NCBI GenBank assembly: GCA_033551855.1
Contig: JAWSUI010000001.1
Coordinates: 1 to 64,000, forward strand
Length of the DNA: 64,000 bases
Direction of reading: 5' to 3'
Source: Deferrisomatales bacterium
GTDB lineage: Bacteria; Desulfobacterota; Deferrisomatia; Deferrisomatales; JACRMM01
This document shows positions 39,144-55,508 of the stretch, piece by piece (position 1 is the first letter of the stretch; each line of letters opens with the position of its first letter). The position numbers and the translations under genes are program-made. The notes below the pieces were generated by a model that made no database searches, was not told the origin of the DNA, and saw only the letters and a program-made list of their open reading frames with translations.

Positions 39144-39160
39144 TGGCACGGTCGTTGCTA
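39144..39160 (+). promoter_or_regulatory. sigma54 promoter of the hdr-metVF operon
   Basis: Consensus TGGCACG-GTCG-TTGCTA, preceded by an AT-rich IHF-like stretch. Confidence 0.85.
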
Positions 39161-39222
39161 TCCCACAAGGGCAACGGCGGGGATTTTCCGGGCCCTCGCG
39201 GCCCCCGACAAAGGAGGATGCC

Positions 39223-39702
39223 ATGCAGACCAGACCCGACGTCATGATCCTCGACACCGACCGCAGCCGCAGCAAGTCCCTCCGGAGAATCCTTCAAGAC
39301 GGGCGGCAGGACGTGAGGGTGGAAGAGGTCGCCGAGGTCGCGAGCGCCCGCGGGGCCATCCTCTCCCGGCGACCCGCCCTGGTGCTGCTCCACTCCACCT
39401 TCCCGTATCTCGAGGGGGACGGCACGGGGCTTCTCGAGCTCATCCAGGACGACTTCCGCAACAGCAACATCGGCGTGATGCTGGTGCTGCCCATCTCGGG
39501 TTCCCTGCTGTACCGGTCCGGGTACCAGGAGGGCATGGAGATGCTCGAGATGGCCGACGACCTGATCACCACCGACTACACGAGCGACATGATCCAGTCC
39601 GTGGTCTGCGACTACCTGGGTCGGCGCGCCGCCGCCACGGAGAGCGTGGTGGAGGCCGCAGGCACCCCCGAGTACGCCTTCGTGCCCACGAAGCGCGTTT
39701 GA
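39223..39702 (+). CDS. Receiver-like (pseudo-REC) single-domain protein
   Basis: AAGGAGG SD; REC-like pattern VMILDTD..RPALVLLH..ADDLITT lacks the phospho-Asp and the conserved Lys. Confidence 0.65.
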   Translation: MQTRPDVMILDTDRSRSKSLRRILQDGRQDVRVEEVAEVASARGAILSRRPALVLLHSTFPYLEGDGTGLLELIQDDFRNSNIGVMLVLPISGSLLYRSGYQEGMEMLEMADDLITTDYTSDMIQSVVCDYLGRRAAATESVVEAAGTPEYAFVPTKRV

Positions 39703-39793
39703 GAGGTCCGTTCGCGGATACGGTGACGCACCGGGAGCGTCCGCGGGGACGCGCAGGCCCTGGGGGGGGCGCGGGATAGCGGGAGAAGAATCG

Positions 39794-42700
39794 ATGGCGA
39801 GCGGCAAGAGCCCCACGGGGGCGGTGCTGGTGGTGGGAGGGGGCATCGCCGGGATCCAGGCGAGCCTGGACCTGGCGGAGAGCGGCTACAAGGTCTACCT
39901 GGCGGAGAGCCGCTCCGCCATCGGGGGCCACATGGCCCAGTTGGACAAGACCTTCCCCACCAACGACTGCGCCATGTGCACCATCAGCCCCAAGCTGGTG
40001 GACGCGGGCCGCCACCTGAACATCGAGATCCTGACCGGCGCGGAGGTCCTCGCCCTCGAAGGCGAGGCAGGGGACTTCCGGGCCAGGCTCCGCCGCCACC
40101 CCCGCTACATCGACCCCGCCAAGTGCACGGCCTGCGGCGACTGCGAGAAGGTGTGCCCGGTGGAGATCCCGGGCCGCTTCGACGAAGGCCTCGTGCGCCA
40201 GCGGGCTGCCCACAAGCTGTACCCCCAGGCCGTCCCGAACGCTTACGCCATCGAGAAGATCGGGGTCAGCCCCTGCCGCGACGCGTGCCCCGCGGGCCAG
40301 CGGGCCCAGGGGTACATCGCCCACATTCGCAACGGGGACTACGAGGCGGCGTTCCGGACGATCAAGCTCGACAACCCCTTCCCCGCCATCTGCGGGCGCA
40401 TCTGCAACCACCGGTGCGAAGACGCGTGCAACCGGGCCAAGCTCGACCAGGCCCTGGACATCCGTGCGCTGAAGCGCTTCGTCACCGACCACGAGTATGC
40501 CAAGCCCTACCAGCCGCCGGAGCCGGCGGCTCGGCGCTACGAGGAACGGGTCGCGATCATCGGCGCGGGCCCGTGCGGGCTCTCGGCAGCCAAGGACCTG
40601 TGCCTGGAGGGGTACGGGGTCACCGTGTACGAGGCGCTGCCCGTGGCCGGAGGGATGCTTCGGGTGGGCGTGCCCCAGTACCGGCTGCCCACCGAAGTGA
40701 TCGACAGGGAGGTCCAGGAGATTGTCGACTACGGCGTGGACTTGCGGCTGGAGTCCCCCGTGACGAACGTGGAGGAGCTCTTCGCCCAAGGCTACGCGGC
40801 GGTCCTCATCGCGGTGGGGGCCCACGAGGGCATCCGGCTGCCCATCGAGGGGGCCGACCTTCCCGGGGTGCTCACCAACACCTCGTTCCTGCGCGACGTG
40901 CGGCTCGGGTCCCCCCCGGAGCTGGGGGAGAGGGTAGTCGTCATCGGGGCCGGCGACGTGGCCATGGACTGCGCCCGCACCTCCGTGCGCCTCGGCCGTC
41001 AGGTGGCGGTGCACTACCGCCGAAGCCGGGAGGAAGCCCCCGCCGACCCCCTGGAGATCGCGCACGCCCTGGAGGAGGGGGTGGACTTCCACTGGCTCTC
41101 CAACCCCGTGGCGGTGCTCGCCGGACCGGACGGCCGGGTGCGGGGGCTCCGCCTCCAGCGCATGGCCCTCGGCGCCCCGGACGAGAAGGGGCGGCGGCGC
41201 CCGGCCCCCGTCGAGGGCTCCGAGTACGAGGTCCCGTGCGACAACGTGATCTTCTCCGTGGGGCAGAGGGCCGGTCTCGCGTTCCTGCCCCCCGACACGG
41301 GGGTGGCAATCGGGGGGGACAACACGGTCACCGTGGACCCCGAGACCTTCGCCACCTCGCGGCCGGGGCTGTTCGCGGCGGGGGACAGCACCACAGGGAC
41401 GGCCTTCCTGATCGACGCCGTGGCTTCCGGCCACCGGGCGGCCCGGGGCATCCACGCGCACTTGAGGGGCGAGCCGCTGCGGCGCACCGCGAAGGAGCGC
41501 CTGCCCGTGGCAGATATCCCGCGTGAGGCCCTGGTGGCCGGCGCCGACCGGGGGGAGCTCCGCCGGGAGGGACGTCTCCACGTGCGCAACCTAGACGCCT
41601 CCGAGCGCCGCCGCAGCTTCGACGAGGTGGCCTTGGGGTACACCGAGGCGGAGGCCCGTCACGAGGCGGAACGCTGCCTCTCCTGCGGTGTCTGCTCCGA
41701 GTGCTACGCCTGCGTGGAGGCCTGCAAGGCCGGCGCGGTGGTCCACGAGGAGCTGGAGCAGGAGGAGTGGCTCCAGGTCGGCGCCGTCGTCCTGGCGCCG
41801 GGGTACGAGCTCTACGACGCCCGCCTGAGCCAGGAGTTCGGCCTCGGCCGCTACCCCAACGTGGTAACGGCCATGCAGTTCGAGCGCATGCTCTCGGCCT
41901 CCGGCCCAACCCACGGCCACGTGAGGCGTCCCGGTGACGGGACCGTCCCGAAGCGGATCGCGTTCCTCCAGTGCGTCGGGAGCCGGGACCAGAACCACGA
42001 CTACTGCTCGAGCGTGTGCTGCATGTACGCGGCCAAGGAAGCCATCATGGCCGTGGAGCACGAGCCCGGAACCGAGGTGACCGTGTTCTTCATGGACACC
42101 CGGTCCTTCTCCAAGGGCTATGACGAGTACTACCGCCGCGCCCGCGAGCGTTACGGGATCCGCTACGAGCGGTGCCGGGTCTCGCGCCTGACCGAGGACC
42201 CTGCGAGCGGCGCGCTCACCGTACGGTACGTACGGGACGGCGCCCTGCGCCAAGAGCCCTTCGACCTGGTGGTCCTCTCGGTGGGGATGGAGGTCTCCCC
42301 GTCCGTGAGGGAGCTGGGCGGCCGGTTGGGGGTGGAGCTCGACGAGTACGGCTTCTGCCACACCACCCTCTTCAACCCCCTGGAGTCGAGCCGGCCCGGG
42401 GTCTTCGTGGCCGGCCCCTTCCGGGAGCCCAAGGACATCCCGGAGACCGTAGTGGAGGCGAGCGGCGCGGCCTCCCGGGCGGGTACCCTCCTGTCGTCCG
42501 CCCGGGGCACCCTGACCCGGCTGCCGGAGTACCCGCCCGAGCGCGACGTGGAGGGAGAGGAGCCTCGTGTGGGGGTCTTCGTCTGCCACTGCGGGTCGAA
42601 CATCGGGGGCTACCTGGACGTGCCGTCGGTGGCCGACTACGCCGGCGGCCTGCCCGGGGTCTCCCACGCCGAGGCGAACCTCTACACCTGCTCCCAGGAC

Positions 42701-44329
42701 ACGGTGGCCCACATCAGCGAGATCGTGCGGGAGGAGGGCCTGAACCGGGTGGTGGTGGCGTCCTGCAGTCCCCGCACCCACGAGCCCCTCTTCCAGGACG
42801 CTGTCCGGGCCGCCGGACTCAACCCGGCCCTCTTCGAGATGGCCAACATCCGGAACCAGTGCTCGTGGGTGCACGCCGGGGCCTGGGACCGGGCCACCGA
42901 GAAGGCGATGGACCTCGTGCGGGGAGCCGTGGCCCGGGCCGGGCGCCTGGAGCCGGTGCACTCCCTGGAATTCCCGGTGCGGAAGTCCGCCTTGGTGCTG
43001 GGGGGGGGCGCCGCCGGCATGACGGCGGCCCTCGAGCTCGCAGACCAGGGGTTCCCCGTCCACCTGGTGGAGAAGGCCGCGGAGCTCGGCGGGAACCTGA
43101 GACAACTGCGCTTTCTGGAGGACGGGAAGAGCCCCGCGGAGTGGCTCGGGGATCTGGCGGGGCGCACCGCCGCCCACCCGAACATCGACGTGCACCTGGG
43201 CACCACCCTGCAGGAGATCGGCGGCTTCCGGGGCAACTTCTCATCGACCCTGGCGGGCTCGGGCGGCGAGACGGTGCGAGTGGAGCACGGGGTGGCAGTG
43301 GTGGCCACCGGCGCCCGGGAGTACCGGGGACCGGAGTACGGGCTCGGCAGCCACCCCGACATCGTCACGGCCTTGGACTTCGAGGAGCTGCTCTACCGCA
43401 AGGCGGGGGGCAACGGCCACGACGCCGCAGCACACCTCACGGCTCGGCCGCTGCCCGACAGCGTCGCCATGATCCTGTGCGTGGGCCCTGCGGAGCGCTT
43501 CTGCGCCCGCACCTGCTGCACCACGGCCATCAAGAACGCCTTGGTGCTCAAGGAGCTCAAGCCCGACGCCGAGGTGACGGTGCTGTACAAGGACGTGCGC
43601 ACCTACGGCTTCAAGGAGCGCCTGTACACGGAGGCCCGGCGCCGAGGGGTGCGCTTCCGGCGCTACGACGAGGCCGAAAAGCCCCGGGCCTCGGTGGAAT
43701 GGAGCTCCGTGCGCTTGGATTACCGGGACGCGGGCTCGGGCCGGTCCGTGACGCTGCGCCCGCAGATGCTCGTCCTCGCCGAGCCCATGGTTCCCCACGC
43801 CGACGCCGGGGAGCTCGCCACCCGCCTCAAGGTGCCCCTGGACGGCGACGGGTTCTTCCTGGAGGCCCACGTGAAGCTCCGGCCCGTGGACTTCCAGTCC
43901 GACGGCCTATACCTGGCGGGCCTCGCCCACTACCCCAAGTTCCTGGCGGAGTCCATCGCCCAGGCACAGGCGGCCGCCGCCCGGGCGGCGACGGTGCTCT
44001 CCAAGGACGTGCTCCACGCCGAGGGGATCGTCGCCCACGTGGACCAGGAAAAGTGCGTGGGGTGCCTCACCTGCGTACGGGTGTGCCCCTACGAGGTGCC
44101 GCAGATGCAGGCCCAGGCCGGCGGGGTGGGCGGCATCGCCGGGGCCGCCTACGTGGAGCCCGCCACCTGCCACGGCTGCGGCGTGTGCGCGGGTGAGTGC
44201 CCGGCAAAGGCCATCCAACTGGCCCACTACACCGACGCCCAGGTGGGCGCGATGGTCGAGGGCCTGTTCGAGGGCAGGGCCCGGTATCACGGAAAGCCGT
44301 CCGAGGGGACCGCGCCGGGCGGGTGTTAG
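39794..44329 (+). CDS. hdrA: Large HdrA-like flavoprotein (HdrL type: two HdrA units plus a GltD-like insert)
   Basis: GGGIAG..LDKTFPTNDC; ferredoxin motifs; GltD-like CRDACPAG..ICGRICNHRCE, GAGPCG, GAGDVAMD; QCVGSRD..YCSSVCC; GVFVCHCG; second FAD site GGGAAG; C-terminal ferredoxin. Confidence 0.9.
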   Translation: MASGKSPTGAVLVVGGGIAGIQASLDLAESGYKVYLAESRSAIGGHMAQLDKTFPTNDCAMCTISPKLVDAGRHLNIEILTGAEVLALEGEAGDFRARLRRHPRYIDPAKCTACGDCEKVCPVEIPGRFDEGLVRQRAAHKLYPQAVPNAYAIEKIGVSPCRDACPAGQRAQGYIAHIRNGDYEAAFRTIKLDNPFPAICGRICNHRCEDACNRAKLDQALDIRALKRFVTDHEYAKPYQPPEPAARRYEERVAIIGAGPCGLSAAKDLCLEGYGVTVYEALPVAGGMLRVGVPQYRLPTEVIDREVQEIVDYGVDLRLESPVTNVEELFAQGYAAVLIAVGAHEGIRLPIEGADLPGVLTNTSFLRDVRLGSPPELGERVVVIGAGDVAMDCARTSVRLGRQVAVHYRRSREEAPADPLEIAHALEEGVDFHWLSNPVAVLAGPDGRVRGLRLQRMALGAPDEKGRRRPAPVEGSEYEVPCDNVIFSVGQRAGLAFLPPDTGVAIGGDNTVTVDPETFATSRPGLFAAGDSTTGTAFLIDAVASGHRAARGIHAHLRGEPLRRTAKERLPVADIPREALVAGADRGELRREGRLHVRNLDASERRRSFDEVALGYTEAEARHEAERCLSCGVCSECYACVEACKAGAVVHEELEQEEWLQVGAVVLAPGYELYDARLSQEFGLGRYPNVVTAMQFERMLSASGPTHGHVRRPGDGTVPKRIAFLQCVGSRDQNHDYCSSVCCMYAAKEAIMAVEHEPGTEVTVFFMDTRSFSKGYDEYYRRARERYGIRYERCRVSRLTEDPASGALTVRYVRDGALRQEPFDLVVLSVGMEVSPSVRELGGRLGVELDEYGFCHTTLFNPLESSRPGVFVAGPFREPKDIPETVVEASGAASRAGTLLSSARGTLTRLPEYPPERDVEGEEPRVGVFVCHCGSNIGGYLDVPSVADYAGGLPGVSHAEANLYTCSQDTVAHISEIVREEGLNRVVVASCSPRTHEPLFQDAVRAAGLNPALFEMANIRNQCSWVHAGAWDRATEKAMDLVRGAVARAGRLEPVHSLEFPVRKSALVLGGGAAGMTAALELADQGFPVHLVEKAAELGGNLRQLRFLEDGKSPAEWLGDLAGRTAAHPNIDVHLGTTLQEIGGFRGNFSSTLAGSGGETVRVEHGVAVVATGAREYRGPEYGLGSHPDIVTALDFEELLYRKAGGNGHDAAAHLTARPLPDSVAMILCVGPAERFCARTCCTTAIKNALVLKELKPDAEVTVLYKDVRTYGFKERLYTEARRRGVRFRRYDEAEKPRASVEWSSVRLDYRDAGSGRSVTLRPQMLVLAEPMVPHADAGELATRLKVPLDGDGFFLEAHVKLRPVDFQSDGLYLAGLAHYPKFLAESIAQAQAAAARAATVLSKDVLHAEGIVAHVDQEKCVGCLTCVRVCPYEVPQMQAQAGGVGGIAGAAYVEPATCHGCGVCAGECPAKAIQLAHYTDAQVGAMVEGLFEGRARYHGKPSEGTAPGGC

Positions 44330-44375
44330 GGGAAACGGGGGTAAGACGGGTTTTCCACCTCACGAGGAGGCCGAG

Positions 44376-44876
44376 ATGAGCGAGTTCAGCCCGGGCATTG
44401 TCGCCTTCTGCTGCCACCACTGCGCGTACGGGGCTGCGGACCTCGCAGGGGCCATGCGGCTAAGCTACCCCGACGCCGTGCGGGTGGTGCGCCTGCCCTG
44501 CACCGGCAAGCTCGACGTGGCCCACGTTCTCTCGGCCTTCGAGCACGGTGCCGACGGGGTGATGGTGGCCGGTTGACTGCCGGGCGACTGCCATTACCTG
44601 GAAGGTAATACGAACGCAAAGAGAAGAGTCCGCTACATCGCCCAGCTCCTGGAGGAGATCGGCGTGGGGGGGGAGAGGGTGCGCATGGTTCACCTCTCCT
44701 CGGCGGAAGGTGCCCGCTTTGCCGAGATCTGCACCGAAACGACCGAGGCCTTGAAAGCGCTGGGGCCGAGCCCGTTGGGAAGGAAACCGGACGGGGTGAC
44801 GGGATCGACGGGGGGGGAGAGCGGAACGCGGAAGGCCGCGGAGGAAGGCAACACGGAGGCGCCCGCAGCACCGTAG
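44376..44876 (+). CDS. mvhD: MvhD-like [2Fe-2S] subunit, selenocysteine-containing (UGA 44574-44576)
   Basis: AFCCHHCAY, VRLPCTGK, GADGVMVAG-U-LPGDCHYLEGN; the frame stays open to 44876 (LGPSPL); the paralog has Cys at this position. Confidence 0.88.
44577..44618 (+). promoter_or_regulatory. Candidate bacterial SECIS element
   Basis: Stem ATTACCT-GGA-AGGTAAT (44593-44609) begins 16 nt after the UGA; G-containing loop; locally AT-rich codon choice. Confidence 0.72.
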
Positions 44877-44916
44877 GCAGATCCGGGCGCAACCGGTTCA
44901 CCCCGTCATCCCGTCC
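44789..44916. repeat. ACRGGAT inverted-repeat element 1 (mvhD1/metV1 junction)
   Basis: Left arm GGACGGGGTGACGGGATCGACGG; right arm CCGGTTCACCCCGTCATCCCGTCC. Confidence 0.7.
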
Positions 44917-44934
44917 CAGGACAAGAGGGTTCCC

Positions 44935-45654
44935 ATGATCGTCGCCGAACAGAAGCCCCTCGACGAGATCCTCGCCATGACCGCCGACGCCTCGGATGTG
45001 CTCGTCCTGGGGTGCGGCACCTGCGTGACCGTGTGCTTCGCCGGCGGAGACAAGGAGGCCGAGATCCTCGCCGCCTCCCTGCGCATGAAGGCCCAGCTCG
45101 CGGGCTCCCCCCGGGAGGTGGCCCACGCCACCGTGCAGCGCCAGTGTGAGTGGGAGTACCTGGACGGGGTCGGCGAGGCCCTCCAGGCGGCGGGCGCCGT
45201 GGTGTCCCTCGCCTGTGGCGTCGGCGCCCAGGCCATCGTGGAGCGCTTTCCCGAGGCCAGGATGGTTCCAGGGCTCAACACCCGCTTCTACGGCCTCCCG
45301 ACCACCCACGGCGTCTGGGAGGAACGGTGTGCGGGGTGCGGCGACTGCGTGCTCGAATACACCGGTGGCATCTGCCCCGTGGCCCGCTGCTCGAAGAGTC
45401 TTCTCAACGGCCCCTGCGGCGGCACCAACAAGGGCAACTGCGAGGTGGACCCGAACACGCCGTGCGCCTGGCGCCTGATCGTCGAACGCATGGAGAAGCT
45501 CGGCCACCTGGGCCGCCTCGAGGAAGTCCACGCCCCCAAGAACTGGCGGGCGGGCCGGGACGGCGGCCCGGGGCGCATCCTCCGGGAGGACCTGGTGCGC
45601 GAGCGCGACCGCGAGGCCCTGGGGCTGAGGGAGGAGGCGCGCGCAGGGGGGTGA
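44935..45654 (+). CDS. metV: Methylene-THF reductase subunit MetV (copy 1)
   Basis: GCGTCVTVC.AGG, RQCEWEY, LACGVG, CAGCGDC...GGICPVARCSKSLLNGPCGG. Confidence 0.88.
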   Translation: MIVAEQKPLDEILAMTADASDVLVLGCGTCVTVCFAGGDKEAEILAASLRMKAQLAGSPREVAHATVQRQCEWEYLDGVGEALQAAGAVVSLACGVGAQAIVERFPEARMVPGLNTRFYGLPTTHGVWEERCAGCGDCVLEYTGGICPVARCSKSLLNGPCGGTNKGNCEVDPNTPCAWRLIVERMEKLGHLGRLEEVHAPKNWRAGRDGGPGRILREDLVRERDREALGLREEARAGG

Positions 45655-45720
45655 CCGGTAGGGGTAGGGGACTCGACCGGATGAGGGGATCGAAGGGAGG
45701 CCGAGGCAAGGGCAAGATCC

Positions 45721-45874: not shown

Positions 45875-46867
45875 ATGAGCGAGGCAGCCAGCCAGAGCAA
45901 CCTGGAGAAGGTATTCGCGTCGGGGACGTTCGCAGTCACCGGCGAGCTCGGCCCGCCCAAGGGCGCGGACCCCGAGGTGATCCGCAGGAAGGCCCGCCTC
46001 CTGCGCGGCGCGGTGGACGCGGCGAACATCACCGACAACCAGACGGCGGTGGTGCGCATGTCGTCCATTGCGGCAGGCCTGCTGGCCCGGGACGAGGGCG
46101 TCGAGCCGGTGGCCCAGATGACCTGCCGCGACCGCAACCGCCTCGCCATCCAAGCCGACCTCCTGGGGGCCTGGGGCCTGGGGCTCCGCAACCTCCTGTG
46201 CCTCACGGGAGACCACCAGACCTTCGGGAATCACCCCTCGGCGAAGAACGTGTGGGACGTGGACTCGATCCAGCTCGTGAAGATGATGGCGGAGATGAGA
46301 GACCGAGGCGTCTTCGCCAACGGCGAGGAGATCGAGGAGGACCCGCCCCGCTTCTTCCTGGGCGCCGTCGAGAGCCCCTTCGCGGAGCCTTTCGCGTACC
46401 GCCCCTTCCGGGTGGCCAAGAAGGTGCGGGCGGGTGCCCGCTTCCTCCAGACCCAGTGCATCTACAACATGCCCCGCTTCAAGGAGTTCATGGCACGCCT
46501 CGGCGACATGGGGCTCCTGGACAAGGTGTACGTGATGGCCGGCCTCAGTCCCCTCAAGGGGCCGGCGATGGCTAAGTACATGGCGGCCAACGTACCGGGC
46601 ATCGACATGCCCGACGCGGTGGTGGAGCGGCTCACCCAGGCCGGGAAGGGCCTCGAGGACAAGGCGGAGAAGTCCAAGGCCTGGCGCGCCGAGGGCATCC
46701 GGCTGTGCATCGAGCAGATCCAGGAGGTCCGGGAGATCCCCGGCGTGGCAGGGGTGCACGTCATGGCCATCGAGTGGGAGGAGGCGGTACGCCCCATCGT
46801 GGAGGGTGCAGGGCTCCTCCCCCGCCCCCAGCCCCTGCCGGCCGAGAGCAGGGGACAGGGGGCGTAG
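45875..46867 (+). CDS. metF: Methylenetetrahydrofolate reductase (copy 1)
   Basis: GELGPPKG, NITDNQ, QMTCRDRN, LCLTGDH, FLQTQ, GVHVMA. Confidence 0.92.
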   Translation: MSEAASQSNLEKVFASGTFAVTGELGPPKGADPEVIRRKARLLRGAVDAANITDNQTAVVRMSSIAAGLLARDEGVEPVAQMTCRDRNRLAIQADLLGAWGLGLRNLLCLTGDHQTFGNHPSAKNVWDVDSIQLVKMMAEMRDRGVFANGEEIEEDPPRFFLGAVESPFAEPFAYRPFRVAKKVRAGARFLQTQCIYNMPRFKEFMARLGDMGLLDKVYVMAGLSPLKGPAMAKYMAANVPGIDMPDAVVERLTQAGKGLEDKAEKSKAWRAEGIRLCIEQIQEVREIPGVAGVHVMAIEWEEAVRPIVEGAGLLPRPQPLPAESRGQGA

Positions 46868-46985: not shown

Positions 46986-48353
46986 ATGACCGCACAGACG
47001 AGCACCTCCCTGGCCGAAAGGGTCGAGCAGGCCACACACCAGAACGCCCATCTGTGCTACCAGTGCCTCCGGTGCTCCGCGGGGTGCCCTGTGGCCGAGG
47101 ACTTCGACCTGCTGCCGAGCGAGGTGATGCGGGCGGTCCAGGAAGGGGACGAGTCCGTGGCGGGGAGCCGGACGGTGTGGCTCTGCGCCTCCTGCCAGAC
47201 CTGCAACACCCGCTGCCCCCAGGGGCTCGACATCCCGGGCATCATCGACCACTTCCGCCAGCAGACCCTCGACCGGGCCTCGGTGCCGGAGACCGCCCGG
47301 TTCTTCAAGGCGTTCCTGCGGAACGCCCGGATCTTCGGCCGGGTCTACGAGGCCGGCCTGATGGGCGAGCTCAACCTCCGGGACGGGCACCCCTTCCGGG
47401 ACCTCGGGATGGGCCTGCGGATGATCCGTAAGGGCAAGATCCGCCTGCTGCCCGACTTCGCCAGACCCCCTCGCAAGGTGTCGGCCGTCTCGCCCGCACC
47501 CAACCGGGTGGCCTACTACCCGGGCTGCTCCCTCCACTCCACCGGCGCGGCCTTCGACCGGTCCTTCCGGGCCGTGGCGGGGGAGGTGGGCCTCGACGTG
47601 CTCGAGATGCCCGGGTGGACCTGCTGCGGCACCACGCCGGCCCACGGGGCGGACCCGGTGAAGGCGGTCGCCATGCCGCTCCAGAATTTGGCGATCGCCG
47701 AAAAGATGGGGCTCGACCGCGTGGTGGCTCCCTGCGCGGCGTGCTACGGCAGGTTCCAGGGGGCGCTGCGCCACTACCGGCAGGGAGGCGCCCTGGCCGA
47801 CCGGGTGGACGCCGCGCTGGGGAGCGAGTACGGGGACGGCGTGAAAGTGCTCAACGCGGTGGACCTGTTGGGCGAGGTGCCCGCCGAGTCCTGGGAGGAA
47901 AAGTGCAAGGCGCCCCTGCGGGGCCTCAAGGTGGCGTGCTACTACGGCTGCCTCCTCACCCGGCCGGCCGCCGACACCGGGGCCCCGGACCCGGAGGACC
48001 CCCAGGGGATGGAGCGCCTGGTGCGTGCCCTGGGCGGTGAACCCCTCCCCTGGTCGCGGAAGACCGACTGCTGCGGTGGGAGCCTGGCCATCTCCCACAC
48101 CGGTTTGGCGAAGCGGATGACCGCCGAGATCCTCAAGGAGGCCCAGGCCCGGGGCGCGGACCTGATTGCGGCCGCGTGCCCCCTGTGCCACGTGAACCTG
48201 GATGAGCGCCAGCCCGAGATGGCAGCCGACCTCGGGTTCACGATCCCGGTGGTGTACGTGACCCAGATCCTGGCCGTGGCCTTGGGCCTGCCCGCCGAGG
48301 CCCGGGCCCTGGACCAGTCCGCTGTGACGCCGGAACCCCTGATGAGGCTCTGA
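46986..48353 (+). CDS. HdrC-HdrB fusion (copy 1)
   Basis: CYQCLRCSAGCP and CASCQTCNTRCP (HdrC); YYPGC, WTCCG, YYGC, DCCGG, ACPLC (two CCG domains). Confidence 0.9.
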   Translation: MTAQTSTSLAERVEQATHQNAHLCYQCLRCSAGCPVAEDFDLLPSEVMRAVQEGDESVAGSRTVWLCASCQTCNTRCPQGLDIPGIIDHFRQQTLDRASVPETARFFKAFLRNARIFGRVYEAGLMGELNLRDGHPFRDLGMGLRMIRKGKIRLLPDFARPPRKVSAVSPAPNRVAYYPGCSLHSTGAAFDRSFRAVAGEVGLDVLEMPGWTCCGTTPAHGADPVKAVAMPLQNLAIAEKMGLDRVVAPCAACYGRFQGALRHYRQGGALADRVDAALGSEYGDGVKVLNAVDLLGEVPAESWEEKCKAPLRGLKVACYYGCLLTRPAADTGAPDPEDPQGMERLVRALGGEPLPWSRKTDCCGGSLAISHTGLAKRMTAEILKEAQARGADLIAAACPLCHVNLDERQPEMAADLGFTIPVVYVTQILAVALGLPAEARALDQSAVTPEPLMRL

Positions 48354-48427: not shown

Positions 48428-51400
48428 ATGTCCCCGAACCGCAACGGCAATCCCAGGAAGGTGGGTTCGGTCCTCGTCGTGGGGGGCGGCGTGGCCGGGA
48501 TGCGGGCGGCCGCCGATCTGGCGGAGACCGGGCTCCAGGTGTACCTGGTGGAGGCCGCCCCGGGACTCGGCGGCCGGGTCTCCCAGCTCGGCTTCATGTT
48601 CCCCACCCACGACTGTGTGCTCTGTCGGGGCTCCCCGGACCACGGATACGGGTGCACGCGCCCCTCCATCTCCCCCGCCTTTCAGGACCACAACCTCCAC
48701 CCGAACATCGAGGTCATGACCCTGACCGAGGTGGTGGGTTTCGAAGGCCAGGTGGGGAGCTTCACCGTCACCCTGCGCCGCCATCCACGGCACGTGGACA
48801 CCGAGCGGTGCATCAACTGCCGCCTGTGTGCCGTGGTGTGCCCGGCATCCGTCCCGAGCGAGTTCCAGATGGGGATGTCCAACCGGAAGGCCGCGTACAA
48901 GACGGCGCCCCGGTCCATCCCGGACGCCTACGTCATCGAGAAGGGCCCCTGGTGTGAGGGCTGCGGCAAGTGCGAGCGCATCTGCCCCACGGGCGCCGTG
49001 GCCCTGGACGAGGAGCCGCAGACCGAGACCATTCGGGTCGGCGCCGCCATCCTGGCCCTCGGCTATCAGCTCTTCGACCCCTCCGCCCTCGAGGAGTTCG
49101 GGTACCGCCGCTATGCCAACGTCCTCACGTCGATGCAGTTCGAGCGTCTCGCGAGCCGGTCGGGCCCCACCGAGGGGATGGTGGCGCGGCTCTCGGACGG
49201 CCGGAAACCCGGGCGGATCGCCTGGCTCCAGTGCATCGGGTCCCGGGATCGCGAGCACCCCTACTGCTCCTCCATCTGCTGCATGATCGCGACCAAGCAG
49301 GCCATGCTCGCCAAGCAGCGCCTCGAGGACGTGGGCTGCCAGGTGTTCGTCATGGACGAGCGGGCGTTCAACAAGGAGTACACCAAGTACTACCACCGGG
49401 CCGTGGAGTCCCACGGGGTGATCTACACGCGCTGCCGCGTGAGCGCGATCCGGGAGGACCCCAAGACCCGCGACCTGCTGCTGCGGTTCCCCGACGAAGA
49501 GGGGAACCTGGTGGAGGAGCGCTTCGGCATGGTGGTGCTGGCGGTGGGCATGCAGCCCCCGGCCCGGTCCGCCGAGCTGGCCCGGATGATGGGGATCGAG
49601 CTCAACGCCCACGGCTTCTGCGAGACCGACAAGTTCCAGCCCCTCCAGACGAGCCAGCCGGGCGTCTACGTGGCCGGCGCGTTCCAGTCCCCGAAGGAGA
49701 TCGCCGAGACCGTCTTCGACGCCGCGGGCGCCGCGGGCGAGGTCATGCGCGTCTTCCACGACGTCCTGGGGGGCCTTCCCGCCCCCCGGGAGTACCCCTT
49801 CCTGGCGCGCACGGCGGGTTTCCCCGCCGAACGGGACGTGTCCGGGGAGAGCGCCCGCACCGGGGTCTTCCTCTGCGGGTGCGGACCGGTGGTGGCCCAG
49901 AGCCTGGACCTCGAGGGAATGGCCGAGTACGCCGGAGCGTTGCCCGGGGTGGCCCACACCACCATCGTGCCCCTGGCCTGCTTCCCCGAAGGCGTCGAGA
50001 CCATCCAGGAGACCGTGGAGGCCCACGGCCTCAACCGGGTCGTCGTGGCGGCCTGCAGCCCCCGCACCCACGAGGCCCTCTTCCAGAGGGCGGTGCGACA
50101 GGTTGGTCTCAACCCGTATCTCCTGGAGATGGTCAACCTCAGGGAGTACTGCGCCTGGGTGCACGACCGGCAGCCCGCCGAGGCCACCCGCAAGGCCAAG
50201 GAGCTGGTGCGCGCCGGTGTCCTTCGGGCCGCCCGCCTGCTCCCGGTGCACCGGACCCCGATCCAGCCCTACCGGCGGGCCCTGGTGCTGGGCGGGGGTG
50301 TGGCCGGCATCACCGCGGCGCTGACCGTGGCCGACAGCGGGTACGATGTGACCCTGCTGGAGCGCTCGGAGGCCCTCGGGGGCAACGTGCGGCACATCTA
50401 CTACCTCGCCGAGGGGCTGAACCCCCAGCGGCTTCTCCGGGACCTGATCAACCGGGTTCGAGGCCACCACCGGATCGACGTGCTGACCGAGGCGGAAGTG
50501 GAGAGCTCCAGCGGTTCGATCGGGAACTTCCGCACCCTGGTGCGGACCGCCGAGGGCCAAGTGGAGGTGGAGCACGGCGTGACCATCGTGGCCACCGGCG
50601 GCCGGGAGGGGACCGCCGAGGCCTACCTCCACGGAGAGGACGAGAGGGTGGTGACCCAACTGGAGCTGGAGGACTGGCTCGCCCACCAGCCGGAGCGCAT
50701 CGCCGGCATGAAGAGCGTGGTCATGATCCAGTGCGTGCAGCCCGCGGAGGCGGAGTCCTTCTACTGCTCCCGCACCTGCTGCACCAACACCATGAAGAAC
50801 GCGATCCGGGTGAAGATGCTCAGCCCGGAGTGCCAGGTCACGGTCCTCTACAAGGACATCATCACCTACGGCTTTCGGGAGCAGTTCTACACCGAGGCCC
50901 GCCGCCGGGGCGTGGTCTTCGTGCGGTACTCGGATGACCGCCGGCCCGAGGTGACCCCCTCGGCCGACTCGCTCCGCCTCCGGGTCCTCGACCCGTCCTT
51001 GGACCGCGTGTACACCCTGGAGCCGGACCTGGTCGCCCTGAGCATGTCCATCATCCCGGCCGACGGCACCCGGGAGCTGGCGCACGCCCTCCGGCTACCC
51101 CTGTCCAGCGAGGGCTTCTTCCTCGAGGCGGACCTCAAGATGCGCCCCATGGACTTTCAGGCCGAGGGGGTCTTCCTCTGCGGCATGGCGCACTACCCTC
51201 GGTTCCTCGAGGAGGCCATCTCCAGCGCCCAGGCCGCTGCGGGGCGCTCCCTCACGATCTTGAGCATGGACCCCTTCTACACCGGCGGGGTCGTGGCCGA
51301 GGTGGACCCGGACCGGTGCGTGGGCTGCCTCACCTGCGTGCGCACCTGCCCGTTCCACATCCCCGCGATGGAGTACGACCACCCCGGGGTAGGGGGTCTC

Positions 51401-51580
51401 GGGGGACACGCCCGGATCGACCCCGCCCTGTGCCAGGGGTGTGGTTCCTGCACGGGGGAGTGCCCGGCGGTGGCGATCCAACTGGCACACTACCGGGACG
51501 AACAGGTGATGACCGGGGGCCTTGGGGCCTGGGAGACCGGCGGCCCGGCGATCGGCACCACAGGAGCGCACAGCCCATGA
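48428..51580 (+). CDS. hdrA: HdrA-like flavoprotein (two HdrA units, no GltD insert; copy 2)
   Basis: GGGVAG..MFPTHDC; 2x[4Fe-4S]; QCIGSRD..YCSSICC; GVFLCGCG; second GGGVAG; C-terminal ferredoxin. Confidence 0.9.
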   Translation: MSPNRNGNPRKVGSVLVVGGGVAGMRAAADLAETGLQVYLVEAAPGLGGRVSQLGFMFPTHDCVLCRGSPDHGYGCTRPSISPAFQDHNLHPNIEVMTLTEVVGFEGQVGSFTVTLRRHPRHVDTERCINCRLCAVVCPASVPSEFQMGMSNRKAAYKTAPRSIPDAYVIEKGPWCEGCGKCERICPTGAVALDEEPQTETIRVGAAILALGYQLFDPSALEEFGYRRYANVLTSMQFERLASRSGPTEGMVARLSDGRKPGRIAWLQCIGSRDREHPYCSSICCMIATKQAMLAKQRLEDVGCQVFVMDERAFNKEYTKYYHRAVESHGVIYTRCRVSAIREDPKTRDLLLRFPDEEGNLVEERFGMVVLAVGMQPPARSAELARMMGIELNAHGFCETDKFQPLQTSQPGVYVAGAFQSPKEIAETVFDAAGAAGEVMRVFHDVLGGLPAPREYPFLARTAGFPAERDVSGESARTGVFLCGCGPVVAQSLDLEGMAEYAGALPGVAHTTIVPLACFPEGVETIQETVEAHGLNRVVVAACSPRTHEALFQRAVRQVGLNPYLLEMVNLREYCAWVHDRQPAEATRKAKELVRAGVLRAARLLPVHRTPIQPYRRALVLGGGVAGITAALTVADSGYDVTLLERSEALGGNVRHIYYLAEGLNPQRLLRDLINRVRGHHRIDVLTEAEVESSSGSIGNFRTLVRTAEGQVEVEHGVTIVATGGREGTAEAYLHGEDERVVTQLELEDWLAHQPERIAGMKSVVMIQCVQPAEAESFYCSRTCCTNTMKNAIRVKMLSPECQVTVLYKDIITYGFREQFYTEARRRGVVFVRYSDDRRPEVTPSADSLRLRVLDPSLDRVYTLEPDLVALSMSIIPADGTRELAHALRLPLSSEGFFLEADLKMRPMDFQAEGVFLCGMAHYPRFLEEAISSAQAAAGRSLTILSMDPFYTGGVVAEVDPDRCVGCLTCVRTCPFHIPAMEYDHPGVGGLGGHARIDPALCQGCGSCTGECPAVAIQLAHYRDEQVMTGGLGAWETGGPAIGTTGAHSP

Positions 51581-52047
51581 TCGAGAGCCGGCCCCCGGCG
51601 GCCCCCCCCTTCGAGCCCGAGCTGACGGCCTTCACCTGCGCATACTGCGCGTACATGTCGGGGGACACCGCCGGCGCGCTCCGCCTCCAGTACCCCGCCA
51701 GCGTCAAGGTGGTGCGGCTTCCCTGCACCGGGAAGACCGATGCGCGCTACCTGCTCCGGGCTTTCGAGGAGGGGGCCGACGGCGTGTACGTGCTCGCGTG
51801 CCCCATCGGCAACTGCCACCACGTACGGGGCAACGAGCGGGCCAGGGCCCGGGTGGCGCAGACACGGAAGCTCCTGGAGCAGGTGGGCCTGGAAGGGGGA
51901 CGGCTCGACATCTTCTTCCTCTCCGGGGGCATGGGTGAGGGCTTTGCGGTGGCGGCTCGGGAGATGACCGAGCGCATCCGCAAGCTGGGCCCGAACCCGC
52001 TGAGAAACGGACGAGGGTTGGACGGGATGACAGGATGCACAGGATGA
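51577..52047 (+). CDS. mvhD: MvhD-like [2Fe-2S] subunit, Cys form (copy 2)
   Basis: AFTCAYCAY, VRLPCTGK, GADGVYVLACPIGNCHH..GN, LGPNPL. Confidence 0.9.
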   Translation: MIESRPPAAPPFEPELTAFTCAYCAYMSGDTAGALRLQYPASVKVVRLPCTGKTDARYLLRAFEEGADGVYVLACPIGNCHHVRGNERARARVAQTRKLLEQVGLEGGRLDIFFLSGGMGEGFAVAAREMTERIRKLGPNPLRNGRGLDGMTGCTG

Positions 52048-52143
52048 CCAGGAAGGGGGGGCTGGACGGTTCCCGGGGTCCTGGCAGCCGAGCCACGCCC
52101 ACGAGAGGAGGCTTATCCTGTAGATCCTGCGAATCCTGTCCAA
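52018..52143. repeat. ACRGGAT inverted-repeat element 3 (mvhD2/metV2 junction)
   Basis: TTGGACGGGATGACAGGATGCACAGGATGA-N65-TTATCCTGTAGATCCTGCGAATCCTGTCCAA; the left arm supplies the mvhD2 stop codon. Confidence 0.82.
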
Positions 52144-52162
52144 CAGAACGCGAGGTGTTCTC

Positions 52163-52912
52163 ATGATCGTCGGCGAGCAGAAGCCACTGGCGGAGATCAA
52201 GGGGTTCCTGGACGGGGCGCAGAAGGTCCTTGTGGCAGGGTGCGGCACCTGCGTCACCGTGTGCCTGGCCGGGGGCGAGAAGGAGGCCCAGCTCCTGGCC
52301 TCCGCCCTGCGCATGGCGACGACGCTCGACGACGCCACCCGTCAGGTGAGCGACGTCACGGTGCAGCGCCAGTGCGAGTGGGAGTACCTGGACACCATCG
52401 GGGAGCGGGTGCGGGACGCAGATCTGGTGGTATCGCTCGCCTGCGGCATCGGGGTGCAGGCCATGGCGCGGCACTTCCCCGACCAGTGGGTCGTACCCGG
52501 CCTCAACACCACCTTCCTGGGACTCCCCGAGGAGCAGGGCGTCTGGACCGAGCAGTGCCAGGCCTGCGGCAACTGCATGCTCGGCCTGACCGGGGGGATC
52601 TGCCCCATCGCCCGATGCTCGAAGCAGGTGCAGAACGGGCCCTGCGGTGGCTCCGAGAACGGCCTGTGCGAGGTCAAACGCGTCAAACGGGAGAACGGCA
52701 TCCCGGTGATGAGAGCCGATGCGCGAGGCAGGCAGGCTCCCGTCACCGAGGATGTGGAGTGCGCGTGGCACCTGATCCACGAGCGCCTCAAATGCCTCGG
52801 GCGGCTCGACCTGATCCGAGGCGTCCAGGAGCCCAAGGACTGGTCCACCTCCCGGGACGGCGGCCCCCGCCGCATCGTCCGGGAAGACCTGCTCCTGCTG
52901 GACGAGGAATAG
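52163..52912 (+). CDS. metV: Methylene-THF reductase subunit MetV (copy 2)
   Basis: Same Cys motifs as 44935-45654, plus an insertion of about 23 aa after LCEV. Confidence 0.88.
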   Translation: MIVGEQKPLAEIKGFLDGAQKVLVAGCGTCVTVCLAGGEKEAQLLASALRMATTLDDATRQVSDVTVQRQCEWEYLDTIGERVRDADLVVSLACGIGVQAMARHFPDQWVVPGLNTTFLGLPEEQGVWTEQCQACGNCMLGLTGGICPIARCSKQVQNGPCGGSENGLCEVKRVKRENGIPVMRADARGRQAPVTEDVECAWHLIHERLKCLGRLDLIRGVQEPKDWSTSRDGGPRRIVREDLLLLDEE

Positions 52913-52924
52913 GAAAAGGCCGGT

Positions 52925-53037
52925 TTGGACAGGATAACAGGATGGACGGGATGAAGACGGCGGGCGAACCTGCGGGGCGGATTAACCGGCCAGGGCGTAA
53001 GCCGACCTGAACGTTCACATCCCGGTCATCCTGTCAA
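52925..53037. repeat. ACRGGAT inverted-repeat element 4 (metV2/metF2 junction)
   Basis: TTGGACAGGATAACAGGATGGACGGGATGA ... CATCCCGGTCATCCTGTCAA. Confidence 0.78.
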
Positions 53038-53064
53038 GGGACGTCCTACTCGTGGGGTTTTGAG

Positions 53065-54042
53065 ATGACGACGGACAACGGCTACAAGTCGGGCAGCAAC
53101 CTGGAGAAGGTCCTTCGGGCGGGCCATTTCGCCGTGACCGGGGAGCTCGGCCCCCCCCAGAGCTCGGACGGCGACCACATCCGCAAGAAGGCCGCGCACC
53201 TGAAGGGCGCGGTGGACGCGGTGAACGTCACGGACAACCAGACGGCCGTCGTCCGGATGTCGAGTCTGGGGGCCTCGATCATCGCCGTGCAGGAGGGCCT
53301 GGAGCCGGTCATGCAGATGACCTGCCGGGACCGCAACCGGCTGGCGATGCAGGCAGACTATCTGAGCGCCTACGCCCTGGGCATCCGCAACATGCTCGCC
53401 CTGACCGGCGACCACCAGTCCTTCGGAAACCACCCGACGGCCAAGAACGTCCACGACCTGGACTCCCTGCAGCAGCTCCGCATGATGAAGGACCTGCGGG
53501 ACGGGCGGAAGTTCCAATGCGGCGACCCGGTGAAGGGGTGCGAACCCCGGTTCTTCATCGGGGCGGCGGCGGCCCCCGAGGCCCACCCGGTGGAGTGGCG
53601 GCCCCAGCGCCTGGCGAAGAAGGCCGCCGCCGGGGCGGACTTCGTGCAGACCCAGCTCGTGTACAACGTGCCGGCCTTTCGGCGGTACATGGAGGAGGTG
53701 CGCAGGCTCCGGGTCCACGAGAGGCTAGCCATCCTGGTCGGGGTCGGGCCGCTGAAGGGACCGGCCATGGCGAAGTACATGCGGGACTTCGTCCCGGGGA
53801 TCACCGTGCCCGACTACGTGATCGAGCGGATCGAAACCGCCGCCCGGGGCATCCCCCCCGAGGAGAAGGAGGAGCGCCAGCGGGTATGGCGCGCCGAGGG
53901 GCTCAAGATGTGCATCGAGCTGATCCAGGAGCTCCGGGAGGTCGAAGGGGTGGCGGGAGCCCACGTCATGGCCATCGAGTGGGAGGAGGCGGTGCGGCCC
54001 ATCGTCGAGGGCGCCGGCCTCCTGCCGCGGCCCGTGGTGTGA
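53065..54042 (+). CDS. metF: Methylenetetrahydrofolate reductase (copy 2)
   Basis: GELGPP, NVTDNQ, QMTCRDRN, LTGDH, FVQTQ. Confidence 0.92.
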   Translation: MTTDNGYKSGSNLEKVLRAGHFAVTGELGPPQSSDGDHIRKKAAHLKGAVDAVNVTDNQTAVVRMSSLGASIIAVQEGLEPVMQMTCRDRNRLAMQADYLSAYALGIRNMLALTGDHQSFGNHPTAKNVHDLDSLQQLRMMKDLRDGRKFQCGDPVKGCEPRFFIGAAAAPEAHPVEWRPQRLAKKAAAGADFVQTQLVYNVPAFRRYMEEVRRLRVHERLAILVGVGPLKGPAMAKYMRDFVPGITVPDYVIERIETAARGIPPEEKEERQRVWRAEGLKMCIELIQELREVEGVAGAHVMAIEWEEAVRPIVEGAGLLPRPVV

Positions 54043-54058
54043 CACACCGGGCCCCCAA

Positions 54059-54087
54059 CATCCCGTCGATCCCGTTATCCCGTCGAA
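54059..54087. repeat. Solo right arm of the ACRGGAT element (metF2/hdrCB2 junction)
   Basis: CATCCCGTCGATCCCGTTATCCCGTCGAA directly before the SD. Confidence 0.65.
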
Positions 54088-54098
54088 AAGGGGTTTCG

Positions 54099-55508
54099 AT
54101 GGAACCAGTAACCACGACCAACCAGCTTCGCCCGGACCTGGCCCGCGAGATCGAGGCCCGCACCGGGCAGAACGCGTTCCTGTGCTACCAGTGTGTGCGG
54201 TGCACCAGCGGGTGCCCGATGACCGAGTTCTACGACTACACCCCCAACCAGGTGATGCGGCTCGTCCAGATCGGCGACGAGGAGGCCGCGCTGGGGGCCC
54301 GGACGCCCTGGCTGTGCGCCTCGTGCCAGACCTGCAGCACCCGGTGCCCCCAGGGTCTCGACATCGCCCGGGTCATGGAGACCCTGACCCAGGTGTCCCA
54401 CGAGCGGGGCATCGAGCCCGCGGTCCCCGACGTCGCCCTCTTCCACAAGATCTTCCTCAAGGACGCCAAGATCTTCGGCCGGGTGTACGAGCTGGGATTG
54501 ATGGGCGCGATGAACCTCCTGTCCGGGAACTGGTTCCAGGACATGGACCTGGGCGTGGCGATGTTCAAGAAGTCCAAGATCAGCCTGCTGCCGTCGGTGG
54601 CCCGGTCGCGACCCGACCGCCAGAAGGACCGACACCCCGCGGTCAACCAGGTGGGCTACTACCCGGGGTGCTCCCTCCACTCCCTGGCCAAGGAGTTCGA
54701 CACGTCCTTCCGCGCTTCGGCCCGCGCCCTCGGGTACCACCTGGTGGAGCCCAACGGGTGGACCTGCTGCGGGGCGAGCCCTGCCCACCACGTGGACCCC
54801 TACCTGGGAGTCAAGGCGCCGCTGGCAAACCTGTCCCTGGTGGAGGCCAGCGGCTTCGGCGAGGTCGTCGCCCCGTGCGCCGCGTGCTACAACCGGTTCA
54901 AGGCGGCCGACCACGACGTGCGTCGCGACCCGAAGCTCCGCGCACGAATCGACGCCGACCTGGGATACCGGTACCGGGGAGAGGTGGAGGTGCTGTCCAT
55001 TGCAGACTGGCTGGCCGGGCGCGTCGGCGTGGAGGCGATCCGGGGGAAGGTGGTCAAGCCTCTCGAGGGCCTCAAGGTGGTGTGCTACTACGGGTGCCTA
55101 CTCACCCGTCCGCCGGAGGTCACCGGCCACCCGCACCCCGAGTACCCGATGGAGCTCGACGAGGTGTGCCGGGCTCTCGGGGCCGAGAGCCTCGACTGGG
55201 ACGACAAGACCCTATGCTGCGGCGGCAGCCTGGCCGTGCCGGCCAAGGAGGTCATGCTCAAGCTCAGCCAGAACATCGTGGAGCACGCCCAAGAGGTCGG
55301 CGCCGACGTCATCGCCGTGGCGTGCCCGCTCTGCGACTCGAACCTCGACAGCCGCCAGCTCCAGATGCCGGGGCTCGCGAAGCGGACGCCGGTGCTCTAC
55401 GTGACCCAGCTCATGGCCCTGGCGTTCGGGCTGGGGGAAAAGGCGGCGGGTCTGGGCAAGAAGCTCGTCGACCCGCGGCCGGTGCTGCAGGAGAGAGGGC
55501 TTCTCTAG
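54099..55508 (+). CDS. HdrC-HdrB fusion (copy 2)
   Basis: CYQCVRCTSGCP, CASCQTCSTRCP, YYPGC, WTCCG, YYGC, LCCGG, ACPLC. Confidence 0.9.
   Translation: MEPVTTTNQLRPDLAREIEARTGQNAFLCYQCVRCTSGCPMTEFYDYTPNQVMRLVQIGDEEAALGARTPWLCASCQTCSTRCPQGLDIARVMETLTQVSHERGIEPAVPDVALFHKIFLKDAKIFGRVYELGLMGAMNLLSGNWFQDMDLGVAMFKKSKISLLPSVARSRPDRQKDRHPAVNQVGYYPGCSLHSLAKEFDTSFRASARALGYHLVEPNGWTCCGASPAHHVDPYLGVKAPLANLSLVEASGFGEVVAPCAACYNRFKAADHDVRRDPKLRARIDADLGYRYRGEVEVLSIADWLAGRVGVEAIRGKVVKPLEGLKVVCYYGCLLTRPPEVTGHPHPEYPMELDEVCRALGAESLDWDDKTLCCGGSLAVPAKEVMLKLSQNIVEHAQEVGADVIAVACPLCDSNLDSRQLQMPGLAKRTPVLYVTQLMALAFGLGEKAAGLGKKLVDPRPVLQERGLL

Follow-up and report, generated by a model that had tools for sequence, protein, structure and literature searches.

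We analysed a stretch of 64,000 nucleotides (hereafter the window; contig JAWSUI010000001.1, positions 1 to 64,000, forward strand) from an anaerobic Deferrisomatales bacterium (assembly GCA_033551855.1, here G000), which carries genes for two candidate methylene-tetrahydrofolate (methylene-THF) reductases of the kind linked to heterodisulfide reductase (Hdr) subunits. Reading of open reading frames (ORFs) and domains across the window showed ten cassette genes, all on the + strand and all with open frames, which follow the order hdrA-mvhD-metV-metF-hdrCB twice, first at 39794-48353 and then at 48428-55508. A first-pass annotation had claimed this order and a clear divergence between the copies, and both points held: identity between the paralogs was 47% for the HdrA core, 50% for MvhD, 53% for MetV, 60% for MetF and 50% for HdrCB. 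The block also takes in two genes that the annotation had passed over, a 159-aa ORF at its start and a gene for a CBS-ACT protein at its end.

Cassette 1 begins with hdrA1 (39794..44329, 1511 aa), a fused HdrA dimer of the HdrL type with a nested GltD module. It is followed by mvhD1 (44376..44876, 166 aa; PF02662), with selenocysteine (Sec) at codon 67, a TGA at 44574-44576. The PF02662 match is complete (residues 8-130) only when this codon is read through, and folding revealed a hairpin resembling a selenocysteine insertion sequence (SECIS) 19 nt past the TGA (44593..44609, +). The hairpin folded in 12/12 sequences examined, with one compensatory change in locus L059, and selA is present in the genome. 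Then come metV1 (44935..45654, 239 aa; PF12225), metF1 (45875..46867, about 330 aa, start set by paralog alignment; PF02219) and hdrCB1 (46986..48353, about 455 aa). Cassette 2 opens with hdrA2 (48428..51580, 1050 aa), a fused HdrA dimer with an intact inserted ferredoxin domain and no GltD module. The mvhD2 gene (51577..52047; PF02662) overlaps hdrA2 by 4 bp and encodes the cysteine form, with a cysteine at the site matching the Sec of MvhD1; C75 is invariant in 30/30 aligned rows. It is followed by metV2 (52163..52912, 249 aa; a split PF12225 match), metF2 (53065..54042, 325 aa; PF02219) and hdrCB2 (54099..55508, about 469 aa). Both HdrCB proteins have two Fe-S dicluster motifs and two complete CCG domains, and both MetF proteins keep the catalytic motifs (Glu and Asp; GELGPP, LTGD). 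Collectively, these data bear out the initial description: a 1511-aa HdrA with a GltD-like module and a Sec-MvhD in cassette 1, a 1050-aa HdrA without that module and a Cys-MvhD in cassette 2, and HdrC fused to HdrB in both. The presence of MetV and MetF, of HdrA with the glutamate/lysine (E/K) pair, of HdrCB and MvhD, and of Wood-Ljungdahl genes likewise supports its assignment to a putative Moorella-type Hdr-linked methylene-THF reductase.

HdrA1 and HdrA2 are both permuted fusions of two HdrA units, which run from a first TrxR domain with an inserted ferredoxin domain, through an N-terminal-type domain and a second TrxR domain, to a C-terminal ferredoxin domain. The E/K bifurcation residues are kept in all four flavin sites, two per HdrA. 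In HdrA2, E239 and K290 align with structure 5ODC (E356/K409 equivalents) and are invariant in 32/32 rows; in HdrA1, E697 and the lysine after YCSSVCC were read directly from the sequence. The two proteins differ at the inserted ferredoxin domain. In HdrA1, a GltD/NfnB-like module occupies about residues 155-650 (PF14691, PF07992 and NF009410 span 157-657) and is flanked by the cluster motifs of that domain at 111 and 634, with ~520 residues between them. HdrA2 has four ferredoxin motifs, of which the N-terminal pair (128, 176) is only 48 residues apart; it lacks the GltD segment, and its residues 189-176 junction aligned across the HdrA1 insert. HdrA1 is thus an HdrL by build, a large HdrA that houses a GltD-like NAD(P)H module and is followed by mvhD, and HdrA2 is not. 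This supports the proposal, made at first pass, of isoenzymes with different electron carriers: a GltD port in one HdrA, an intact ferredoxin domain in the other.

HdrA1 carries a C59-x-x-C62 pair and a YRR motif that reads as NADPH-type, since we take RR to mark the NADPH type and LE the NADH type, as in GltD/NfnB enzymes. In genome G004, HdrA1 (L032:11624-16267) has a swapped nucleotide subdomain, 43% identical against about 80% in the flanking parts, with an acidic LE instead of RR; this suggests a recombinational shift from NADPH to NADH preference. HdrA2 for its part bears a clade-specific 13-residue insert after C63-x-x-C66 (residues 63-76, window 48614-48655), and C63, C66, H72 and C76 are invariant in 32/32 HdrA2 rows. 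With its invariant histidine and third cysteine, the insert is a possible extra metal or disulfide site. An AlphaFold model of HdrA2 reached a mean predicted local confidence (pLDDT) of 81 and a predicted template-modelling score (pTM) of 0.81, with the insert under 50. Neither for a MetVF-type MetF nor for a fused HdrA did sequence and fold searches return a solved structure.

Within the order, HdrA2 was found in 11/21 genomes: G000 itself, the 7/7 others of its own family, 1/1 of family f2, 2/6 of f3 and 0/6 of f4. In all 11 genomes, which span three families, hdrA2 lies directly after hdrCB1; the genome search for the double cassette that had been suggested thus recovered the same layout wherever HdrA2 occurs in the order. 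The HdrA1 GltD region was present in 16/21 genomes at E 1e-150, with hdrA1 cut by contig ends in G005 and G019. All six f4 genomes, including the closed, one-contig G010, have the promoter motif described below, the 159-aa ORF and cassette 1, without HdrA2. Cassette orthologs are 70-98% identical, and their frames and cofactor motifs are intact; decay of one copy, raised earlier as a possible objection, is thus not what we see, both copies being intact. In G007, frameshifts affect both cassettes in a pattern suggestive of assembly errors, and the genomes with the double cassette seem to be assembled from metagenomes. Among 401 sampled genomes of the phylum, with 7 candidates scored per genome, HdrA2 occurred in 7, all Deferrisomatales. 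Acetyl-CoA synthase (ACS) was found in 18/21 genomes of the order. We also considered whether cassette 2 substitutes for Rnf and found no support for this, rnfC being present in 6/11 HdrA2-bearing genomes and absent from 5. Elsewhere in the phylum, L036-L037 (G039:C45) hold three metV and several hdrA-mvhD pairs of other clades within 30 kb.

The two cassettes are of separate ancestry. In a tree of the shared HdrA core (FastTree, 131 rows), HdrA1 and HdrA2 formed two old clades, each mixing Chloroflexota and Deferrisomatales. The nearest relatives of cassette 2 were in the Chloroflexota genomes G043 and G044, with identities of 72% for HdrA2, 71% for MvhD2, 77-79% for MetV2, 79-80% for MetF2, 68% for HdrCB2 and 59% for the CBS protein; a C-terminal insert of MetV2 is common to both. 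Their operon reads hdrA2-mvhD2-hdrL-mvhD-regulators-hdrL-mvhD-metV-metF-hdrCB-cbs, so that cassette 2 corresponds to this operon minus its HdrL modules. MetF2, MetV2 and HdrCB2 grouped with G043/G044 at 98-100 SH-aLRT (Shimodaira-Hasegawa-like approximate likelihood-ratio support), and MetF1 grouped with other Chloroflexota (98). The approximately unbiased (AU) test rejected trees that unite the two copies, both for MetF (p 3e-5) and for HdrCB (p 1e-8; 0.017 on a smaller set). These tests were run under LG+G4, which gives some false rejections; a mixture-model MetF tree recovered the same groupings. These trees were built without long-branch rows (other metF, metV and hdrCB paralogs), duplicate contigs or the frameshifted G007. 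A recent tandem duplication was rejected on the MetF and HdrCB trees, the copies not being one clade within the host lineage. Of the tandem copies described at first pass, what stands is two adjacent intact cassettes; they are not duplicates of each other. The idea that they might trace to unrelated transfers also holds in part, in that the cassettes come from different lineages, albeit lineages that belong to a single operon family. The probable source of cassette 2 is an operon of the Chloroflexota type; for the direction, transfer from Chloroflexota to Deferrisomatales is the simpler reading because of its lone occurrence in the phylum.

More widely, a scan of species-representative genomes gave 197 HdrA2 relatives. 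The 80 best were retained, 9 belonging to Deferrisomatales and 71 to other groups, mostly Chloroflexota, with two from Acidobacteriota and two without a label. The usual layout outside the order is hdrA2-mvhD2-hdrL-mvhD-metV-metF-hdrCB inside a Wood-Ljungdahl cluster. In the Chloroflexota class of G043, HdrA2 occurred in 64/251 genomes, 63/64 of which have MetV, against 97/251 overall (by eye). The direct succession hdrA2-mvhD2-metV-metF, as in cassette 2, was seen in G082, G121, G060, G103, G210 and G069, and adjoins folD/fhs in the first four (Anaerolineae-class). In these four draft assemblies, two queries found no HdrL, apart from one partial match in G082, within a 1,051-codon frame. G210 has both types on separate contigs, each with its own metVF (hdrL-mvhD-metV-metF on the second contig), and G069 has the cassette-2 type with HdrL and a second metV elsewhere. 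A screen of the 251 genomes for HdrL, with 6 candidates scored per genome, was not used for absence; HdrLs outside its cut-off turned up afterwards in G055, G135, G158, G166, G193 and G218. The direct layout occupied four distinct positions in the MetF tree, which, together with the subdomain swap in G004, indicates that ports are exchanged as modules. In five further loci (L068, L075, L088, L090, L100) a divergent Fe-S/CCG protein (23-27% identity) replaces hdrCB after metF, so the high-potential exit would be exchangeable as well.

The form of MvhD follows the type of HdrA. MvhD after HdrA2 was of the Cys form in all rows and in every phylum sampled, and MvhD after HdrL had a stop at the Sec site in 29/32 rows outside the order, with TGA confirmed in four; the other 3/32 non-Deferrisomatales rows were Cys variants of the MvhD1 type. 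Because Se status tracks HdrA type across phyla and both cassettes lie behind one promoter motif, selenium is probably not the reason for the two copies.

That motif, a sigma-54 -24/-12 element (TGGCACGGTCGTTGCT; 39144..39159, +), is the sole strict match in the window and recurs at the matching position in 7/9 relatives' loci checked. A consensus scan of the 74-bp junction between the cassettes (48353-48428) showed no sigma-70-type site and no terminator-like site, and the sigma-54 motif was absent from this junction in 11 genomes, a scan that leaves room for an internal promoter. Both cassettes would be co-transcribed from one promoter. The claim of a single sigma-54 promoter therefore stands as regards the motif and its conservation, with two amendments: shared transcription is a prediction from sequence, and an overlooked gene, the 159-aa ORF (39223..39702, +), intervenes between the motif and hdrA1. 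This receiver-domain-like ORF had no Pfam or NCBIfam match; its Atlas feature matches, at 0.95-0.96, included one cluster that was 54% PF00072. Its orthologs, 60-84% identical, precede cassette 1 and are the first gene past the sigma-54 motif in all relatives examined, and it could be a single-domain regulator of the complex. Upstream lie a PAS-domain histidine kinase (35910..37634, +, start uncertain; Pfam PAS, HisKA, HATPase_c), also upstream in L032, L045 and L046 and a probable sensor for the operon, and an NtrC-type protein (37631..38962, +; Pfam Response_reg, Sigma54_activat, HTH_8), the probable activator of the sigma-54 promoter, with orthologs of 74-91% identity upstream in L031, L032, L034, L035, L044, L045 and L046. 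The CBS-ACT gene (55552..56190, +; Pfam CBS, ACT), which we take to be AcuB-like, closes the block and travels with cassette 2: it follows hdrCB2 in the order and in L131 and L132, and precedes hdrA2 in L141 and L142. Two ferritin-family genes (by eye; 34069-34600 and 56442-57020) flank the regulator-plus-operon block.

The best explanation, to which we give about an even chance, is that these two intact sets of separate ancestry encode two self-contained type IV (Hdr-type) methylene-THF reductases whose low-potential carriers are predicted to differ, cassette 1 working with NADP(H) and cassette 2 with ferredoxin. In the proposed wiring, modelled on solved Hdr-type complexes, MetF-MetV would dock on MvhD, and mid-potential electrons of the methylene-/methyl-THF couple (-200 mV) would exchange with the N-terminal HdrA flavin. 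On the high-potential branch, electrons would leave by way of HdrC-HdrB and reach a quinone-level carrier or else a disulfide, and the low-potential branch would pass the CxxC relay to the inserted ferredoxin domain. This low-potential port would be occupied by GltD in HdrA1 and free for ferredoxin in HdrA2. A preprint on the cryo-EM structure of a class II benzoyl-CoA reductase (BCRII; 10.64898/2026.04.10.717634) provides the template: a fused HdrA dimer into which electrons pass from the side of the MvhD adaptor. There, an HdrBC fusion hands the high-potential electron to the electron-transferring flavoprotein, from which it goes on to menaquinone, and the low-potential electron moves via the C59-C62 pair to the inserted ferredoxin domain. 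For the Moorella enzyme, whose HdrA is of the GltD type, ferredoxin was reported not to be the missing carrier, and confurcation of NADH and menaquinol onto methylene-THF, reversed on methanol, was proposed in 2026 (PMC13040438, PMC13391211). Both the ferredoxin result and the proposal fit a low-potential port occupied by GltD.

The wiring needs MetV docked at MvhD. A docking prediction for MvhD2-MetV2 gave a weak score of 0.40, against 0.00 for the best control, with runs agreeing in >=90% of contacts and partner pLDDT >=87. The 0.40 mark was reached by 116/157 solved and 2/215 mismatched pairs, and at scores <=0.60 by 18/157 and by both mismatches. Pull-downs in Sporomusa, in which MvhD came with MetF, and MetV with HdrA and not with HdrB, are compatible with the wiring (PMC9430772). 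We calculated energies per two methylene-THF reduced, taking the folate couple at -200 mV and menaquinone at -74 mV, as given in the papers just cited, and assuming ferredoxin at -420 to -450 mV. At standard potential, NADH and NADPH each gave +1.2 kJ; NADPH at -370 mV gave -8.5 kJ, and ferredoxin -18 to -24 kJ. Cassette 1 would sit near equilibrium with menaquinone and suit methyl-THF oxidation in a reverse Wood-Ljungdahl pathway, and cassette 2 would be pulled towards methylene-THF reduction with menaquinone as third partner. On the evolutionary side, the acquired cassette 2 would have lost its HdrL genes and come under the resident sigma-54 promoter.

The Wood-Ljungdahl cluster of this genome (ACS, carbon monoxide dehydrogenase (CODH), Fhs, AcsC/D/E; G000:C3) is without metVF, and the cassettes are thus the likely methyl-branch reductases. 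A third metV lies on C31. Separately, G000:C41:10514-12070 encodes a 519-aa MetF with a fused MetV-like C-terminal domain, a fusion seen across the order, including G009, G013 and G015, which have ACS and lack both cassettes. At least four more HdrA loci were noticed in the genome (G000:C1:176000-186000, C16:16000-23000, C26:22000-38600 and C43), among them a third HdrL-MvhD-HdrCB block, an HdrA-MvhD pair beside NADH-dehydrogenase-like genes and a double Hdr-Flx-like block.

A rival explanation, in our view an unlikely one, is a mixed complex that contains both HdrA1 and HdrA2, perhaps held together by a dimeric MetVF or HdrCB scaffold. In it, HdrA1 would take electrons from NAD(P)H and HdrA2 would deliver them to ferredoxin, supplying the acceptor missing in Moorella. 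Several observations speak against two self-contained enzymes, and the first of them are those that favour the mixed complex. Among the 46 informative non-Deferrisomatales loci (those with >=3.5 kb downstream; 25 shorter loci were not counted), HdrL directly follows HdrA2-MvhD2 in 45, and in 24 of these 45 a single metVF comes after, which indicates that the two modules usually share one MetVF-HdrCB. Inside the order, cassette 2 never occurs without cassette 1 (11/11). A scaffold of this kind has precedents, MetVF of C. ljungdahlii being a dimer of heterodimers (PMC8760232) and the BCRII core being dimeric (10.64898/2026.04.10.717634). Furthermore, the four HdrL-free genomes are drafts with divergent HdrA2 (45-50% identity), and two of them are without hdrCB at the locus. 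As for separate ancestry, monophyly of the copies was not rejected for MetV (AU p 0.155; 0.505 on the smaller set), and the trees are unrooted and drawn from a sample gathered with an HdrA2 query, which favours Chloroflexota. Finally, two opposite directions behind one promoter motif would need post-transcriptional control.

On the other side, each cassette type is found alone, each HdrA is already a fused dimer, and each cassette here retains, under selection, a MetVF and an HdrCB of its own. By analogy, the wiring of BCRII would place the GltD module on the low-potential exit and not on an input. The obligate form of this idea, an asymmetric supercomplex put forward at first pass, is weakened by the occurrence of each type without the other and by the single-chain dimers, and we dropped an obligate HdrA1-HdrA2 pair once stand-alone cases appeared; these cases are the reason why self-contained reductases are favoured over an obligate supercomplex. 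Our confidence in two separate enzymes goes no higher, and the mixed complex keeps its place, because of the co-occurrence round one MetVF, the linkage in the order, the single promoter motif and the draft state of the HdrL-free genomes.

Another possibility, likewise unlikely in our view, was that cassette 2 is a separate enzyme whose inserted ferredoxin domain docks a partner (a formate dehydrogenase, CODH, a Flx/Ifo-type module or a membrane complex) instead of soluble ferredoxin, with the Cys/His insert in the contact. The equivalent BCRII domain docks BamC (10.64898/2026.04.10.717634), many Chloroflexota loci have an Hdr-Flx-like block immediately upstream and C26 of G000 carries another, and the HdrA2 insert combines invariance in 32/32 rows with its low model confidence. 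Orphan hdrA2 genes without mvhD occur in four small genomes (L145-L148), with HdrL-metV elsewhere in those checked. Against docking, no partner gene is conserved beside cassette 2 in the order, where the CBS-ACT gene alone travels along. In L145:7638-12885, the orphan hdrA2 is followed by a 742-aa protein resembling a molybdenum-hydroxylase large subunit (by eye), possibly a different partner.

That cassette 2 is a selenium-independent or redundant back-up with the chemistry of cassette 1 is improbable. In its favour, MvhD1 needs Sec and MvhD2 does not, and f4 relatives manage without cassette 2. Against it, HdrA2 is paired with the Cys form in all sampled phyla, Cys variants of MvhD1 would be a cheaper back-up, the promoter motif is shared, and HdrA2, without the GltD nucleotide site, cannot replace cassette 1 like for like.

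A broader picture can be drawn, which we offer with little confidence. HdrA2-MvhD2-MetVF-HdrCB would be an undescribed and widespread ferredoxin-linked subtype, co-expressed with the NADPH subtype. Whether run in opposite directions or joined in one mixed complex, the two would use the methylene-/methyl-THF pair as a shuttle in a ferredoxin:NADP+ exchange cycle and would also set the direction of the Wood-Ljungdahl pathway, and HdrA-MvhD units would serve as plug-in ports (for NADH, NADPH or ferredoxin) on a common MetVF-HdrCB core.

The wiring of type IV reductases and their third carrier have been open since 2014, and they govern how energy is balanced in many acetogens and acetate oxidisers. 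Two adjacent versions, told apart by a single structural port, would make a natural test case with a clear-cut expectation: the form with GltD should not respond to ferredoxin, as was reported for Moorella, the HdrA2 form should use it, and both should need a quinone-level partner at HdrCB. Given the share of the G043 class that has HdrA2, the answer would apply to abundant sediment bacteria. In a literature search, with subscription papers and supplements outside it, we found no description of two complete tandem cassettes, nor of a MetVF cluster whose HdrA keeps the inserted ferredoxin domain intact.

The closest known system is the type IV reductase HdrCBA-MvhD-MetVF of Moorella thermoacetica (PMC9430772, PMC13040438, PMC13391211), which has the same six functions and whose 162.8-kDa HdrA is built like HdrA1, with two TrxR domains with E/K and GltD. 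The present locus differs in its gene order, fused HdrCB and Sec-MvhD, in the NADPH-type motif of HdrA1 where Moorella uses NADH, and in the presence of another complete cassette whose HdrA differs. HdrCBA-MvhD-MetVF of Sporomusa ovata (Kremp et al. 2022, PMC9430772) has an HdrA of about 100 kDa with two TrxR domains and no GltD, like HdrA2. However, the Sporomusa protein is predicted to hold five [4Fe-4S] clusters, to lack the inserted ferredoxin domain and to carry E/K in a single domain; HdrA2, with that domain intact (128, 176), E/K in both domains and the Cys/His insert, is not of this type. The order hdrA-mvhD-metVF-hdrCB is shared with marine Anaerolineae (Sewell et al. 2017, PMC5736913), where DscP3 also has an hdrC-hdrB fusion and two non-identical metVF sets, and with Hakuba Actinobacteria (PMC7325909), but the texts of these papers name, in the portions available, neither two HdrA types nor tandem complete cassettes.

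Two other systems resemble parts of the locus. HdrL of Desulfobacterium autotrophicum HRM2 (Strittmatter et al. 2009, PMC2702500) is likewise an HdrA-glutamate-synthase fusion followed by mvhD; its tandem hdrL/hdrA locus is associated with fdhB and hdrD, not metVF. BamDEF of BCRII (10.64898/2026.04.10.717634) shares the fused HdrA dimer with inserted ferredoxin domain, the MvhD adaptor, the HdrBC fusion and C59-C62. In contrast, its input and output enzymes differ, its second flavin is without the lysine that is kept in both HdrAs here, its adaptor has Sec at residue 19 and not 67, and its distal non-cubane site is degenerate where both CCG domains are complete here. Single clusters are described in PMC6085437, PMC11996240 and PMC9586279; the first of these cites Bertsch 2015 for a flavin-binding motif that sets MetVF-type MetF apart from the E. 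coli type. The parts and the single cassette are therefore already known; what the present locus adds is two related operons joined, intact and conserved, and its value lies in a testable port hypothesis, not in a new class of machine.

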